DNA from: Candidatus Zixiibacteriota bacterium
Lineage (GTDB): Bacteria > Zixibacteria > MSB-5A5 > GN15 > FEB-12
DNA: 19,513 nucleotides
Reading direction: 5' to 3'
NCBI GenBank assembly: GCA_041742355.1
Contig: JBGSIV010000197.1
Location: forward strand, 1 to 19,513
Shown: positions 4,586 through 19,513 of the stretch, one piece after another
Layout of the letters: each line of letters begins with the position of its first letter
Numbering within the stretch: the stretch's first letter is position 1
Made by a program: the position numbers and the translations under genes
The notes under the pieces: generated by a model
What the model was told of the DNA's origin: nothing
The model's database searches: none
The model's input: the letters and a program-made list of their open reading frames with translations, nothing else

Positions 4586-5083
4586 TCATCGGCTGGGGAC
4601 GATCCCGGCGTATGCATTCTGCAAGGTCCTAAGGTCGATCCTATTCATTTGCATCAATGCCGCAAGGACGCGGTCGGAGCGGGCGGGATCGGAATCATCG
4701 ATCAATTCGCCCGTCGCGGCCGGGACGATCTGCCAGGAGAGTCCGAATTTGTCGGTGAGCCAACCGCACTGGCCCTCCTGGCCGCCGTCGGAGAGTCTCT
4801 TCCAGTAGTTGTCGATTTCTTCCTGCGAGTTGCAGTTCACCATGAACGAGATGGCGGGGGAGAATTTGAAGTGCGGGCCGCCGTTGAGGCCCATGAACCG
4901 CTGACCATCGATTTCGAACACGACGGTCATGACGCTGCCCTCCGGTGGGCCGGAGGATTTGGCGGCGGAGGGGCCGTAGTGGGTGATCTGGGTGATTTTT
5001 GAGTTGGGGAAGACGGAGGTGTAGAAGCGGGCGGCCTCCTCGGCGTTGCCATCAAACCAGAGGCAGGGCATAAGCTTGGGCAT
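4586..5083 (-). CDS. VOC/PhnB-like protein (3-demethylubiquinone-9 3-methyltransferase-like family)
   Basis: Motifs PCLWFDGNAEEAARFY, LNGGPHFKFSPAISF and QCGWLTDKFGLSWQIVP. Confidence 0.92.
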   Translation of the reverse strand: MPKLMPCLWFDGNAEEAARFYTSVFPNSKITQITHYGPSAAKSSGPPEGSVMTVVFEIDGQRFMGLNGGPHFKFSPAISFMVNCNSQEEIDNYWKRLSDGGQEGQCGWLTDKFGLSWQIVPAATGELIDDSDPARSDRVLAALMQMNRIDLRTLQNAYAGIVPSR

Positions 5084-5171
5084 GATTGATCCTTTCTGAC
5101 TATGTTTCGGGTTTAATCGGTATTACGCAGCCGTAGGGGGAAGGGATGGAGAAAATGTGGCGAAGGGGGCT

Positions 5172-5497
5172 GGCGGGAGTCGGAGGGACTCCCGCCCTAC
5201 AGGATCAGTCGCACGGACACGCGGAGCGTGTACGTGGCACGAGCCCCCACCCGTTGGGTGGGGTACAGAGGAATGAGGAATGTGTCAGGTGGGGACACCT
5301 GACACCACAAAGCCTGGATCCCGGGTCGTAGCCCGGGATGACAGTTTCTGATGGTTAGTTTGAGTATGCGAAGTTGGTGCAAATCAGTGTCAGGACCGCA
5401 AGGGTCCTGACCTACAAGAAGAGAAATCACATTAGGCGTACCCTCAAGGACACACAGAGTGTGTCCGTGGTACAAAAAGATGGCGTGTCCGTGGCAC
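5172..5497 (-). repeat. Array of heterogeneous REP-like hairpins: seven complete elements and one half element
   Basis: Hairpins at 5172-5200, 5212-5240, 5245-5266, 5282-5308, 5318-5342, 5389-5415 and 5445-5473, plus a half element at 5483-5497. Each is followed on + by a foot CTAC, GCAC, GTAC, CCAC or TGAC. Confidence 0.75.
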
Positions 5498-5503
5498 AGC
5501 GGG

Positions 5504-5527
5504 CTCGGCTATATACTCGGCTATATA
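5504..5527 (+). repeat. Perfect 12-bp tandem duplication CTCGGCTATATA x2
   Basis: Seen directly, just upstream of the predicted -35 of the dapF-like gene. Confidence 0.8.
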
Positions 5528-5531
5528 TTTG

Positions 5532-5562
5532 TTGTCCTCCGTTTGCGTTTTCCGTACATAAT
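5532..5562 (+). promoter_or_regulatory. Putative leaderless promoter of the dapF-trp operon
   Basis: TTGTCC-17 nt-TACATA(AT); ATG at 5568; no SD. Confidence 0.4.
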
Positions 5563-5567
5563 CCCCC

Positions 5568-6593
5568 ATGCGAATCAACTTTGCGAAATACCATGCGTTG
5601 CGGAACGACTTTCTCGTGATTGAGGCGGGGGAGTCGGCGTTGTCGAAAGCGCGGCTGGGGCGGATTGCGCAGCAGTTGTGCGATCGGAGGGCGGGGGTTG
5701 GGGCGGATGGGATATTGTATGTCAGTTCGCCGCGGCCGACGCGGCAGATGTGGACATCTGCCGCGCACGTGCAGAGGAGTCAGGTGAGGGCGCCAAACGT
5801 CGCACGGACACTTGACGCCACGGACACAGGTGTCAGGCGGGGTCGCCTGACACCACATCGAGTCGAGTTGGTTACTAAAGTCGATGTCTACAATGCCGAC
5901 GGATCGTGGGCGGAGAAGTCGGGGAATGGGCTGCGGATTGTCGGGCTGCATGAATTTCTGAAAGATAAGAGGAAGGTCCAAGGCCAGGGTCGGCAGCACG
6001 GCAAGAGTCAGCGGCAAGCCGGGGCGCAGAAGTGGTCGCTATTTGAGATGGGCGGGGTGGTCAGCGAGGTGCGGGTGCTGAAGAAGCAGGGGGCGGGGTA
6101 CATGGTGGCGACTGACCTGGGGAAGCCGCAGTTCCGGGCGGAGTGTGTGCCGGTGCGGACGAAACAGCAGTACATGGTGCAGGCGCCGCTGAAGATCGGC
6201 GGGCTGGCGTTTCCAGTGACGTGTCTCTCGGTGGGGAATCCGCACACGGTGCTGTTTGTCGACAATTTCGATTTTGACTGGAAGACGCTCGGGTCGGAGA
6301 TTGAACACCACGCGGCGTTTCCCGAGCGGACCAATTTTGATTTTGTCAGGATCGTGAATCGAAAGAAGCTCCAGGTGGCGGAATGGGAACGGGGGGCCGG
6401 GGCGACCGGGTCATCGGGGACAGGGGCGGCGGCTGCGGTTGCGGCGGCAGTCATGAACGGGTTGGCGGGACGCGACTGCGAGGTGGTGTTCGAGCCGGGG
6501 TCTCTCTTTGTGAAGTGGCACGAGGAGACCGATATGATCGAGCTGAGCGGTGCGGTGGAATATGTCGGCGAAGGAACGGCGGAAGTGCGATGA
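5568..6593 (+). CDS. dapF: Diaminopimelate epimerase-like protein with Ser in place of both catalytic Cys and in-frame insertions
   Basis: Motifs KYHALRNDF, CDRRAGVGADG, YNADGSWAEKSGNG, VGNPH, FPERTN, WERGAG-T-SSGTG. Stop overlaps the trpE start (ATGA). Confidence 0.8.
   Translation: MRINFAKYHALRNDFLVIEAGESALSKARLGRIAQQLCDRRAGVGADGILYVSSPRPTRQMWTSAAHVQRSQVRAPNVARTLDATDTGVRRGRLTPHRVELVTKVDVYNADGSWAEKSGNGLRIVGLHEFLKDKRKVQGQGRQHGKSQRQAGAQKWSLFEMGGVVSEVRVLKKQGAGYMVATDLGKPQFRAECVPVRTKQQYMVQAPLKIGGLAFPVTCLSVGNPHTVLFVDNFDFDWKTLGSEIEHHAAFPERTNFDFVRIVNRKKLQVAEWERGAGATGSSGTGAAAAVAAAVMNGLAGRDCEVVFEPGSLFVKWHEETDMIELSGAVEYVGEGTAEVR
5741..5856 (-). repeat. REP-like hairpins inside the dapF-like CDS
   Basis: GCGGCAGATG-TGGA-CATCTGCCGC-GCAC (5741-5768); GTCGCACGGACAC (5799-5811, identical to 5208-5220); GTGTCAGGCG-GGGT-CGCCTGACAC-CAC (5830-5856, sister of 5282-5308). 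Confidence 0.8.
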
Positions 6594-8056
6594 TAAGTTT
6601 GGCTGAAGTCCAGCGCCTGAACAAACAGGGGAACGTGATCCCGGTGTTCGATCGGATCCCGGCGGATCTTGACACGCCGGTGTCGGCGTACATGAAGCTG
6701 GCGACGGGGAAGGGGGAGTCGTTTTTGCTAGAGTCGATCGAGGGGGGAGAGAAAGTCGCGAGGTACTCGTTTCTCGGATTTGATCCGTTTCTAGTTGTCG
6801 AAGGAGAAGCGAACCGTGTTAGTCTGCGGCAAGGGAGGCAGATGCGCGAGATCGAGACCAATCCGCTGGAGTTTATCCGCGAGATGTTCGGATTCTATCG
6901 GCCGGTGAAGGTGGAAGGACTGCCGCGGTTCACCGGCGGCGCGGTCGGGTATTTCGGGTACGACACGGTCCGCTGGGTTGAGCAAATCCCGGACAACAAC
7001 CAGGATCCGATCGGGCTGCCGACGGTGCACCTCGGGTTGTACCGCAACCTCGTCGTGTTCGATCATCCCAAGCAGGATATCCTGCTGATTTGTAATATAC
7101 TCCATGAGCAGGGGGAGAAGGGACTTCGGGAGAAGTACCGCGAGGCGGTAGGCTCGATCGAGACATTTAAGAAGCGGTTGATGTCGCCGCTGCGTCGAAA
7201 GGTCGATGAGAAAGAGCGCGGCGGCAAGGTCAGGGCGCTCTACACGCAGGCAGAATACGAGAAGATGGTCGTTCGGGCGAAGAAGTACATTCGCGAGGGG
7301 GACATATTCCAGGTAGTGCTGTCGCAGCGGTGGGAAGTAGCCAGCGAGATCGATCCGCTGACGGTGTACCGTCGGCTGCGGCGGATAAATCCGTCGCCAT
7401 ACATGTTTCTGCTCAATATGGGGAGTGCCTCGGTGGTGGGGGCATCGCCGGAGATGCTGGCGCGGATCGAGCGCGGCACAATCGAGACGCGTCCGATCGC
7501 CGGGACACGGCCGCGGGGGAAAGACGAGCAGCAGGATGAGCGGCTGGCGGCGGACCTCTTGGCCGATCCGAAAGAACTGGCGGAGCACACGATGCTGGTC
7601 GATCTGGGGCGCAACGATGTCGGGCGGGTGAGTGTGCCGGGATCGGTCGCAGTGCCGCAGCAGATGGCGGTGGAGAAGTATTCGCACGTCATTCACCTGG
7701 TCAGCTCCGTGACGGGGAAAGTCAGCCGGGGGGTGAGTCCGGTGGAGGGATTGATGGCGTGTTTCCCGGCGGGGACGGTGTCGGGGGCGCCGAAGATCCG
7801 GGCGATGGAGATTGTCGATGAACTGGAGAAGTATCGTCGGGGGATCTATGCCGGAGCGGTGGCGTACCTTGATTTCTGGGGGAATCTGGACAGCTGTATA
7901 ACGATCCGGACGGTGGTGCGCAAGGGGAAGACGTATTTTGTCCAGGCGGGGGCGGGGATAGTGGCCGATTCGAAGCCGTCGCGGGAGTTTCGCGAGACGG
8001 AGGCGAAGGCGGGGGCGCTTCTGGCGGCATTGACCGGCAAACCTTACCGTAAATAG
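6590..8056 (+). CDS. trpE: Anthranilate synthase component I
   Basis: Motifs DLDTPVSAY, FLLES, GDIFQVVLSQR, NPSPYM, RPIAGT, EHTMLVDLGRND and GTVSGAPKIRAM. Start at ATG 6590 overlapping the dapF stop. Confidence 0.95.
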   Translation: MISLAEVQRLNKQGNVIPVFDRIPADLDTPVSAYMKLATGKGESFLLESIEGGEKVARYSFLGFDPFLVVEGEANRVSLRQGRQMREIETNPLEFIREMFGFYRPVKVEGLPRFTGGAVGYFGYDTVRWVEQIPDNNQDPIGLPTVHLGLYRNLVVFDHPKQDILLICNILHEQGEKGLREKYREAVGSIETFKKRLMSPLRRKVDEKERGGKVRALYTQAEYEKMVVRAKKYIREGDIFQVVLSQRWEVASEIDPLTVYRRLRRINPSPYMFLLNMGSASVVGASPEMLARIERGTIETRPIAGTRPRGKDEQQDERLAADLLADPKELAEHTMLVDLGRNDVGRVSVPGSVAVPQQMAVEKYSHVIHLVSSVTGKVSRGVSPVEGLMACFPAGTVSGAPKIRAMEIVDELEKYRRGIYAGAVAYLDFWGNLDSCITIRTVVRKGKTYFVQAGAGIVADSKPSREFRETEAKAGALLAALTGKPYRK

Positions 8057-8710: not shown

Positions 8711-9151
8711 TGTCAAATCCCTCTCTGCGGAGGGTTGCCGATTGAAGTCGGTAGAGAAGTCGGTGTCGGCGCCCGCATTGATGGCGGCAAAAGGGATTTG
8801 ACCTACGTCACAGGCCCTGACCCACGGCTCACAGTCAAACACGCGAAGCCGTGTTTGAGCTACAGGGATAGAGTAAGGAGAAGTCGGGTTTCTCGGAGCT
8901 TGCGCTCCTCGGAACCCGACCTACGGAGATCGGGCGATGTCAAATCCCTCTGGGCAGATTGTTTTGAATTGAGGTTACTGAAGGAGTCGGCATAGGCGTT
9001 GCATGGATGGCAGCAAAAGGGATTTGACCTACGACTCAGGCCCCGACCCACGGCTCACCGTCAAACACGCAGAGCCGTGTTTGAGCTACCGGGATAGAGT
9101 AAGGAGAAGTCGGTTTTCCGGGGCCTCCGGTCCCTCGGAACCCGACCTACG
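8711..9151 (-). repeat. Tandem duplicated ~215-bp cassette (8711-8925 and 8938-9151), each copy made of three GTAG-footed REP-like hairpins
   Basis: A: GTCAAATCCCT...AGGGATTTGAC-CTAC; B: TCAAACACG-6 nt-CGTGTTTGA-GCTAC; C: GTCGG(G/T)TTTC...GGAACCCGAC-CTAC; same order in both copies. Confidence 0.9.
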
Positions 9152-15192: not shown

Positions 15193-16206
15193 ATGATAGT
15201 CATCATGCAGGAGCAGGCAACCGACGCCCAGGTGCAGCAGGTTATTGGGAAACTGCTGGACATGGGGTTTGACGTTCACCGATCGACCGGCGCGGTGCAG
15301 ACGGTTCTCGGCGTGGTGGGCGACACCCACACGCTCGATCCGCGCATGTTCGAGATAATCGACGGCGTGCACGAGGTGGTCCGGATCACCGAGCCATATA
15401 AGCTGGCCGGGCGGACATTCCGGAAGCACAATACGGTGATCAAGGTGGGGCAGGCGGAGATTGGCGGGGAGAAGATCGCGATGATCGCGGGGCCGTGTTC
15501 GGTGGAGAGCCGGGAGCAGATCCGCAAGATAGCGCCGTTCGTACGTCAGACGGGGACCGACCTGTTCCGTGGCGGCGCTTACAAGCCGCGCAGCTCGCCA
15601 TACTCCTTTCAGGGGATGGGAGAAGAAGGGCTCAAGTATATGCGCGAGGCGGCGGATGAGAACGGGTTGAAGGTCGTGTCCGAGGTGATGGATCGCATGG
15701 ACATCATTCCGGCTTTGAAATACGTGGATATCATCCAGGTGGGGGCGCGCAACATGCAGAACTTCGCCCTGCTGAAGGAACTGGGCAAAATCGATAAACC
15801 GATCTTGCTAAAGCGGGGGATGTCGGCTACCTTACAGGAGCTTTTGATGGCCGCCGAGTATATCATGGCCGGCGGCAACCACAACGTGATTCTGTGCGAG
15901 CGGGGAATACGGACGTTCGAGAACGCCACGCGCAACACACTTGATATCTCGGCGATTCCCGTGCTCAAGAAGCTGACGCACCTCCCGGTGGTGGTGGATC
16001 CGTCGCACGGCACCGGCCTTCGCGACAAGGTGGCGCCGATGGCGCGGGCCGCGGTAGCGGCGGGCGCGGACGGACTGATGATAGAGATCCACTATGATCC
16101 GGACAAGGCGCTGTCGGACGGGGCGCAGACGTTGTATTTCGAGCAGTACGAACAGCTCGTGAAGGAATGCAGGATCATCGCCACGGCCGTGGGCCGCTCG
16201 CTGTAG
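15193..16206 (+). CDS. aroF: DAHP synthase type I-beta with an N-terminal ACT/ferredoxin-like regulatory domain
   Basis: Motifs [37 protein letters not shown] and DPSHGTG. Confidence 0.95.
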   Translation: MIVIMQEQATDAQVQQVIGKLLDMGFDVHRSTGAVQTVLGVVGDTHTLDPRMFEIIDGVHEVVRITEPYKLAGRTFRKHNTVIKVGQAEIGGEKIAMIAGPCSVESREQIRKIAPFVRQTGTDLFRGGAYKPRSSPYSFQGMGEEGLKYMREAADENGLKVVSEVMDRMDIIPALKYVDIIQVGARNMQNFALLKELGKIDKPILLKRGMSATLQELLMAAEYIMAGGNHNVILCERGIRTFENATRNTLDISAIPVLKKLTHLPVVVDPSHGTGLRDKVAPMARAAVAAGADGLMIEIHYDPDKALSDGAQTLYFEQYEQLVKECRIIATAVGRSL

Positions 16207-18074: not shown

Positions 18075-18935
18075 ATGGCAAAAACAGCGGGCGTGCGGAC
18101 ACAACGGGTGACCATTTGCGGGTTTGGGCTGATCGGGGGGAGTATTGCATACGATCTGAAAAAGGCAGGCGGGCGTCGGGTGGAAATTGTCGCGTTCGAC
18201 CGGCCGTCGGTGCTCAAGGAACTGGGCAAACTCAAGGGGCTGAAGGTTCGTGCCGAAAGCAACCTGGCGAAGGCGGTGGCGGGGGCCGACCTGGTTGTGC
18301 TGGCGGCGCCACACACGGTCAACGAGTCGATCCTGGCCCGTCTGGCGAAGATGAAGGGGTTGACCGACTGCCTGATCGTTGACACCGGGGCGGTGAAGAC
18401 GCCGATTGGCGAGCTGGCGGGGACCCAGTCGTTTCCGGGTGGTACGCAGTTCCTCGGTACGCATCCGATGAGCGGCCGCGAGAAGGCGGGAGCGGCGAAT
18501 GCGATGCCGGGGCTGTTCAGCGGGCGGATCTGGTTCGCCGACGAAGGCGTGCGGCTGAGCGAGTTGAATGCCCTCCGTTGGCAGTGGATGGTTACGGCGA
18601 CCGGGGCAACACCGGCGCTCATCGGCAACGGCCTGCACGATGATCTGATGGCGGAGCTGTCGCACCTGCCGCAGCTGCTGTCGACCGTGCTGGCGGCACA
18701 GGTACAGGAAGACACGATCCAACTGGCCGGGCCGGGACTCGGGTCCATGCTGCGCCTGGCCGGTTCACCTTATAGCGTCTGGTCGGAGATTGTCGACCAG
18801 AATCGCGAGAATATAGTCGGAGCGCTGGAGCGGTACCGTGACAATCTCGATACGGTGATCGGGCTGATCCGGCGGAAAGAATCACTGCAGGACATCTTTG
18901 CGGCCGCAGCGAGGAGTTATAGATGCTTGTCGTAA
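18075..18935 (+). CDS. tyrA: Prephenate/arogenate dehydrogenase
   Basis: Rossmann motif GFGLIGGS, then [18 protein letters not shown]...SHLP and RLA...W. Confidence 0.9.
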
Positions 18936-19513
18936 TGGAGACCTCCGCCCCGCAAGAGGCGGTGGAGCATGTCTGCCGATTAATCGAGGAGATGGGACTC
19001 ACGGCTCACCCGATGCCCGGCGCGCAGCGCACGGCGATCGGGGTGACGGGGAACAAATCGCAGGTCGATTCCGACCGGATCATGACCCAGCCGGGAGTCA
19101 AGGAGATCATCCACGTCACCAAGCCCTACAAGCTGGTCAGCCGGGAGTTCTTTCCCGAGGACACAGTGGTGGATGTGGGGGGAGTGAAGGTCGGCGGGCC
19201 GGAGTTCGTGGTCATGGCCGGGCCGTGCTCGGTGGAGAGCTGCGAGCAGACGATGGCGGTCGCGGAGGCGGTGGCGAGGATGGGAGGGAAGATCCTCCGG
19301 GGTGGGGCGTACAAGCCGCGCTCGTCGCCCTATGCGTTCCAGGGGCTGAAGGAAGAGGGACTGAAGATACTGGCCCTGGCCCGGGAGCGGTATGGCCTGA
19401 AGATAGTGACCGAGGCGCTCGATACTGAGACGATCGCGCTGGTTGCCGACTATGCCGACATCATTCAGATCGGCGCGCGCAACATGCAGAATTACACGCT
19501 GCTGCGGCGGGCG
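18923..19513 (+). CDS. aroF: Second type I-beta DAHP synthase; 3' end outside the window
   Basis: Not in the ORF track. Manual translation [17 protein letters not shown]...KPYKLVSRE...AGPCSVES...[15 protein letters not shown]...GARNMQN; GAGGAG SD; overlaps the tyrA stop. Confidence 0.93.

Follow-up and report, generated by a model that had tools for sequence, protein, structure and literature searches.

We concluded, with a probability of roughly 0.78, that a REP array, namely, a BIME-like mosaic, has grown stepwise in a tolerated surface loop of an enzyme that is probably translated and functional. The window, which is the whole stretch of 19,513 nucleotides analysed here from a Candidatus Zixiibacteriota bacterium, encodes this DapF-fold protein of 341 aa on the plus strand at 5568..6593. 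The expanded loop occupies 5727..5873 of the same strand, where 49-50 codons replace approximately 7, in frame and with no stop; these boundaries are approximate. The class of in-frame intragenic REPs is already known, as described in the accessible text of PMC3733652. The present case contributes a readable history, from an empty loop through one REP to a nested mosaic, with the cognate transposases named for two of the families. It also provides a genome-wide estimate: at least 7 conserved genes are affected, with 5 clear cases among 1467 ortholog pairs.

The host protein belongs to the DapF sequence family and has the DapF fold. It scored 182.9 bits against TIGR00652 (cut-off 114.65), and its structure model, in which the DapF fold is kept, had 9mro_A as the top structural match (E 8e-25). 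Its named homologs are Zixibacteria proteins of approximately 280 aa. The two catalytic cysteines of DapF are absent from the host protein and from nearly the whole family: in the best 120 of 1317 matches, site 1 is Ser in 120/120 and site 2 is Ser in 119/120, with one not parsed. The available portion of PMC13728532 cites a Ser/Ser DapF that was reported to be active (Lamer et al. 2025, J Mol Biol 437:169375). The present protein resembles that diaminopimelate epimerase in its fold and in the serines replacing the catalytic cysteines; in contrast, the Zixibacteria examined here appear to be without dapA and dapB, and the substrate of the host enzyme may not be diaminopimelate.

The Ser/Ser DapF-like gene was present in 61/61 related genomes and was the single DAP_epimerase-domain gene found in the genome of the window, which argues that it is needed. 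However, its essentiality cannot be assumed through the usual lysine-pathway argument because dapB exceeded the cut-off in 0/61 genomes and dapA in 0/21 in profile searches. Matches to ddh and lysA in the window's genome, which is 93.8% complete, were below the cut-off only, and the context of a diaminopimelate pathway (dapA, dapB, lysA or ddh) was not found. We would guess that this family may act on another substrate, such as lanthionine or another cell-wall amino acid. A Ser/Ser DapF-like gene without dapA and dapB may be of greater interest than the insert itself. A trpE-like gene adjoins the DapF-like gene in 20/34 loci. Elsewhere in the window, two 151-base repeat arrays (8775-8925 and 9001-9151) that are 87% identical lie in a tryptophan cluster, between genes that we take from their translations to be trpG-like and trpD-like. 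Two similar genes located 3.7 kb apart (15193-16206 and 18923-19513) presumably encode DAHP synthases.

The loop between the GADG and NADG motifs comprises 60 aa in the window protein. Among the best 120 of 1317 matches, it comprised 16 aa in 13 proteins, 17 aa in 105, 22 aa in one (the closest ortholog, P0002) and 60 aa in the window protein, the net gain of which is approximately 43 aa over its homologs. The loop was also 16-17 aa long in 27 of the 29 genome loci compared (L007-L035; 2 were not parsed), and the insert of 50 aa in the window corresponds to 7 aa in the ortholog of the same-genus genome G002. The preliminary description had placed about 40 extra residues between the two motifs, and 60 aa against 16-17 aa in 118 of the 120 homologs agrees with this proposal. 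A loop of the same length was not found in the other 119 of these 120 proteins, which had short loops (16-17 aa; 22 aa in the closest). The insert scored -0.52 per codon in dicodon usage, versus 0.15 and 0.39 for its flanks. The gene caller used in our analysis placed the start of the host gene at 5868. REP inserts of this kind can mislead gene callers as to where a gene starts.

In the structure model (14 aligned sequences, mean pLDDT 74.6), residues 59-99 had a pLDDT below 50 and were located between strands 48-56 and 102-109. This low pLDDT indicates position more than disorder because low confidence is expected without aligned sequences. The insert is predicted to be a disordered loop between two beta strands, which is consistent with the surface-loop insertion proposed earlier. 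Judging from the motifs, it appears to correspond to aa 49-58 of E. coli DapF. This beta3-beta4 loop is described in the available text of PMC6061855 as part of an exposed RppH-binding platform opposite the catalytic cleft.

Two complete REPs were identified in the insert. Hairpin A (5740..5768, minus strand) has a perfect stem of 10-11 bp and is an exact copy within a family with 10 identical members; the perfect 10-bp hairpin that had been noted at 5741-5764 was confirmed and has a 4-nt loop. Directly before it, 5731..5739 may, as read by eye, represent a partial left arm of a second A variant. Hairpin C (5830..5856, minus strand) carries a GTGG foot and is an exact copy within a family with 12 identical members. 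With 27 bases, a 9-bp stem and a compensatory change between copies, it is a short GC-rich palindrome within the 20-40 bases of typical REPs. In searches of the 4.37-Mb genome at no more than 5 mismatches, with one block-shuffled genome as the control, hairpin A (5741-5768) had 77 copies and hairpin C (5830-5856) had 66, versus 0 each in the shuffle; the hairpins are multi-copy rather than single-copy. According to our own gene caller, 75/77 copies of A and 65/66 of C were outside called genes. The foot of C on the minus strand was GTGG in 51/66 copies and GTGC in 11, in agreement with the canonical GT[AG]G. The foot of A on the same strand was GTGC in 59/77 copies and GTGG in 1, which departs from the canonical form; many of the A copies listed from relatives have the canonical GTGG foot. 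We class family A as REP-like, with a foot that deviates from the standard one.

The intergenic region upstream of the gene (5170..5500) is a mosaic of several REP families, with a copy of C at 5282-5308 and copies of family B at 5208-5236 and 5447-5473. As claimed in the preliminary description, 5830-5856 is a sister of 5282-5308; the three differences between them are a T-A to C-G pair change and one loop base. The identity claimed between 5799-5811 and 5208-5220 is also correct letter for letter, but is weak evidence alone. This B-family match of 13 bases has 3 exact copies in the genome, and at up to 1 mismatch there were 10 copies versus 14 in the shuffle. At its two other exact occurrences, it forms the left arm of members of a small third family, of which there are 7 full copies. 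The statement that the insert is built from the same hairpin families as the adjacent array holds for C and B, but not for family A, the sisters of which are located elsewhere. An Rfam scan of 5000-6700 gave 2 matches, both far below gathering scores, which we treated as chance.

The elements of the insert are RAYT-associated REPs, each of the two families flanking its own RAYT gene. Five genes in the genome exceeded the cut-off of 80 of the RAYT model NF047646 and one fragment was below it. The C-family RAYT (contig C160:8258-8659; 101 bits) has 2 copies of C on one side and 4 inverted copies on the other. The A-family RAYT (contig C233:25635-26051, locus L005; 96.8 bits) has 3 copies of A upstream and 1 inverted copy downstream. 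The latter gene is interrupted by a TAG stop and, thus, this RAYT may no longer be active; even so, 10 members of family A remain identical. The distribution of the two families among relatives is patchy (C in 9/61 genomes, A in 26/61), and the three same-genus genomes had 0-5 A/C matches versus 60-66 in the window's genome. Repeat loci in this genome number approximately 420 and cover 76.7 kb (1.8%).

The history of the loop may be read from an older C-family REP that is split into two arms within the insert (5779..5821, minus strand). The arms (5779-5794 and 5813-5821), if the 18 bases between them are skipped, agree with a copy of C in the genome at 23/25 bases, whereas the best of 400 random gene segments reached 19/25. 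The skipped bases (5795..5812, plus strand; 6 codons) contain the half copy of the B family at 5799-5811, with breakpoints that are ambiguous by a few bases. The closest ortholog, P0002, is 87% identical to the window protein over aligned columns, and the extra peptide in its 22-aa loop matches the C-family translation at 8/9 residues. The corresponding peptide of the window is in two pieces, QVRAP and DAT, with the six codons between them. Among the other 118 homologs, the match to the C-family peptide was 7/9 in one, 6/9 in one and at most 5/9 in 116. The protein with 7/9 is P0042, the loop of which is 16 aa; this match may be due to chance or represent an independent REP remnant. Exact copies of A and C are located on either side of the split older copy. 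The intermediate ortholog and the older copy split by a later insert support the serial insertion that had been claimed. The simplest reading of these sequences is a loop series of 17, 22 and 60 residues, every step of which would have been in frame.

We propose the following course of events. In step 1, one C-family REP would have entered the beta3-beta4 loop in frame, replacing approximately 4 native residues and yielding a loop of 22 aa. This step is drawn from the protein, through a 9-residue peptide match, because the DNA of P0002 was not found: the best that metagenomes yielded was 5 loci at 35-61% identity, a search for shorter fragments led to 13 distant proteins, and the cluster contains a single member. 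In later steps, in whichever order, the 18-base half element would have split the older C-family copy, a full family-A REP would have arrived on its upstream side and a new family-C REP on its downstream side, for a total of 60 aa. By analogy with characterized systems, the RAYTs of the genome would spread REPs by cutting and rejoining single-stranded hairpins. Once the first REP was in place, the site probably attracted further REP DNA, either through RAYT strand transfer or through recombination with other arrays, and the half-elements point to recombination rather than transposition for some steps. Survival would have been limited to products that kept the frame, contained no stop and lay in a harmless loop. 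We consider it most likely that the new peptide is neutral disordered filler and not an adaptation.

A region of multi-copy repeats in an assembly of 310 contigs, the protein of which forms a cluster of one member, raises the concern that repeat-rich contigs were mis-joined within the gene. We compared the locus with contigs from runs X1-X4 and left out runs X5-X13, which had small shares. No RNA run was listed among those containing the locus. An X1 contig (5394-5768, with 0 differences) bridges the left junction of the insert. Contigs that extend across the right junction come from X1 (5798-6900), X2 (5783-5964, with 1 difference) and X3 (5808-6016), the last of which is from a different study. 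Run X1 may be the source sample and, if so, is not independent. Among the contig pieces listed, none spans the whole insert or covers 5769-5782. However, the genome has no second example of the decayed, nested copy, which agrees with the loop of the independent protein P0002. A mis-join within the gene is in our judgment the least probable explanation of all.

The second concern is gene decay in this lineage, in which REPs accumulate in a dispensable protein and the frame is open by luck. The gene contains a second in-frame insert of approximately 18 aa (5976..6029, plus strand; residues 137-154), which is of low complexity and rich in Q, G, R and K. This insert was missed in the preliminary description and is absent from P0002; the distance from SGNG to GNPH is 101 aa in the window and 82-85 aa in the other 118 homologs measured. 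An origin from REP or REP-linker DNA was rejected for this insert: it had 0 matches to the repeat library, and its 9-mers were not clearly enriched in the vicinity of REP loci. Most of the insert is covered by the X3 contig with no gap. Furthermore, the window reads TNFDF where 118/120 homologs read TNVEF. The earlier statement that the frame is open and the downstream motifs are intact requires two qualifications with regard to the motifs: this change, and Ser at both catalytic Cys positions in nearly the whole family. The second, non-REP insert and the two changes in a near-invariant motif could indicate relaxed selection. An open frame alone is weak evidence because 127/450 (28%) of the frames across REP loci 110-170 bases long contain no stop, and the results for dapB and dapA described above do not allow the gene to be called essential.

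However, several results argue against decay. At 6336 and 6341, the bases in runs X1, X3 and X4 differ from those of the window and encode the canonical TNVEF, which indicates that TNFDF is private to the window's assembly or strain; these bases represent a strain variant or an assembly error. Over 5808-6016, the X3 contig differs from the window by 13 substitutions, with no indel. The gene is retained in all of the related genomes and as the sole family member found in this one, its identity to P0002 is high, and the Ser/Ser motifs characteristic of the family are intact. There were at least 3 separate additions, all of which kept the frame, and the same pattern was observed in the single MnmA found in the genome. 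In our opinion, stronger arguments than the bare open frame are that successive steps kept the frame, that the catalytic motifs are intact and that the allele of X3 has no indel. We consider decay to be unlikely and retain stepwise growth in a functional enzyme.

The insert folds with an energy of -70.7 kcal/mol over 145 nt and, thus, contains strong hairpins. These may have been kept for a role in the mRNA, such as stability or translational pausing after the first strands and ahead of the catalytic core, or the peptide may have gained a binding function, as the partner-binding platform formed by the corresponding loop in E. coli DapF (in the available text of PMC6061855) would suggest. An insert at one site of MnmA in three genomes, based on DNA or coordinates, points in the same direction. 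However, the older copy is disrupted and not conserved, 118/120 homologs are without any insert, the peptide is predicted to be disordered, and inserts in different genes have no peptide in common. We regard a gained function as very unlikely, and neutral growth of the array in a tolerated loop as the better reading.

REP-derived in-frame inserts relative to same-genus orthologs were found in six more conserved genes, giving at least 7 in all. MnmA, the only one found in the genome (contig C301:1205-1337, locus L040), contains approximately 41 extra aa of fresh REPs. The MnmA of G002 (contig C7, locus L053) has 29 extra aa at the same linker site, in which one of these REPs appears, as judged by eye, to be present in decayed form, and that of G012, which belongs to another genus (contig C2:871094-871167), is split at the same place with approximately 31 extra aa by coordinates. 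The MnmA of G006 is approximately 16 aa longer by coordinates. DusB (contig C67:4714-4971, locus L037) contains approximately 84 extra aa, including four tandem copies of the most abundant repeat of the genome. At this site, its ortholog in G002 is longer by 8 residues; among the 58/61 genomes with a match, no second large insert that would make DusB a recurrent site was detected by coordinates. The other inserts were 35 aa in two pieces in an acetoacetate-CoA ligase, approximately 49 aa by coordinates in an M50/HlyD-like fusion, 29 aa in a methyltransferase, and 12 aa in a protein that we take from its motifs to be DeoC-like.

The systematic comparison covered 1467 reciprocal best pairs, 2.37 of the approximately 3.5 Mb of G002, and insertions of 6-120 aa; its thresholds were loosened after a first pass missed two known positives. 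Seven of the 56 insertions on the side of the window's genome matched the repeat library (5 strongly), versus 9/1080 control segments and 2/67 insertions on the side of G002. Two of these seven had only 3-5 matches each and are doubtful. REPs are clearly enriched among insertions, although most insertions are not REP-derived. In G002, an 83-aa insertion (locus L132, minus strand) consists of short tandem peptides and a stretch with 11 matches to the repeat library. A census of in-gene repeats gave 8 candidates in which both flanks scored at least 10 and 30 other loose candidates. The candidate on contig C185 was not confirmed against orthologs, that on C182 (EamA) looks like a chance match, and three loose candidates had no family in Pfam or NCBIfam.

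We tentatively raise the possibility that certain protein loops in this Zixibacteria lineage act as REP sinks, in which a first in-frame REP seeds more and the peptide outlives the hairpin. If this is the case, such loops (17, 22 and 60 aa in the DapF-like protein, and MnmA in three genomes) would constitute a dated record, supplied by nature, of how new protein sequence is made and then retained in core enzymes. The insert-bearing enzymes also provide a concrete set for testing the tolerance of loops to repeat-derived sequence and its persistence after the hairpin has decayed.

The preliminary description had likened the insert to RPEs, and this likeness was not upheld: the elements are RAYT-associated REPs with no CGTC tag. 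RPE-1 is reportedly a single longer palindrome of approximately 150 bases. RPEs and the present insert are alike in that palindromic repeats are in frame in likely functional proteins, and the present frame is open in what is predicted to be a surface loop. The accessible part of PMC3733652 states that RPEs carry a CGTC tag at one end, and RPEs have, as far as the available descriptions go, no dedicated transposase. In contrast, the hairpins that make up the mosaic of the present insert are 27-29 bases long, have feet of the GT type (GTGG and GTGC) and are associated with cognate RAYTs. We rejected membership in the RPEs on the basis of the foot motif and the cognate RAYTs.

REPtrons, as described in the portions of Quentin et al. 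2018 (PMC6006769) and Corneloup et al. 2021 (PMC8266576) available to us, consist of a gene for a Y1 HUH transposase and inverted flanking REPs, and RAYTs cut and rejoin their single-stranded cognate REPs. The present families are similar to those described there in having one REP family per RAYT, a 5' tetranucleotide foot, intergenic copies and mosaic arrays. They differ in that the array of the window is within coding sequence and the foot of family A is GTGC.

The closest precedent is intragenic REPs. The available text of Di Nocera et al. 2013 (PMC3733652) describes GTAG/CGTC REPs that are wholly within ORFs of known proteins, more than half of which are dimers or groups encoding 20-30 aa, with clusters encoding 43-82 aa in Thauera and R. 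conorii. Their targets include tRNA-modifying enzymes, and loops and linkers were proposed as the tolerated sites. When six host names were sought in the supplementary files of that paper, no matching host was found; the one epimerase match was unrelated. Our literature search found no paper on REPs in Zixibacteria, with subscription papers mostly out of reach. As far as the accessible text of PMC3733652 allows a comparison, the two cases are alike in their clusters within ORFs and in tRNA-modifying enzymes as hosts. In contrast, the present case adds a further lineage, the Zixibacteria, in which a single loop contains a nested mixture of several families and an ortholog represents the intermediate stage.
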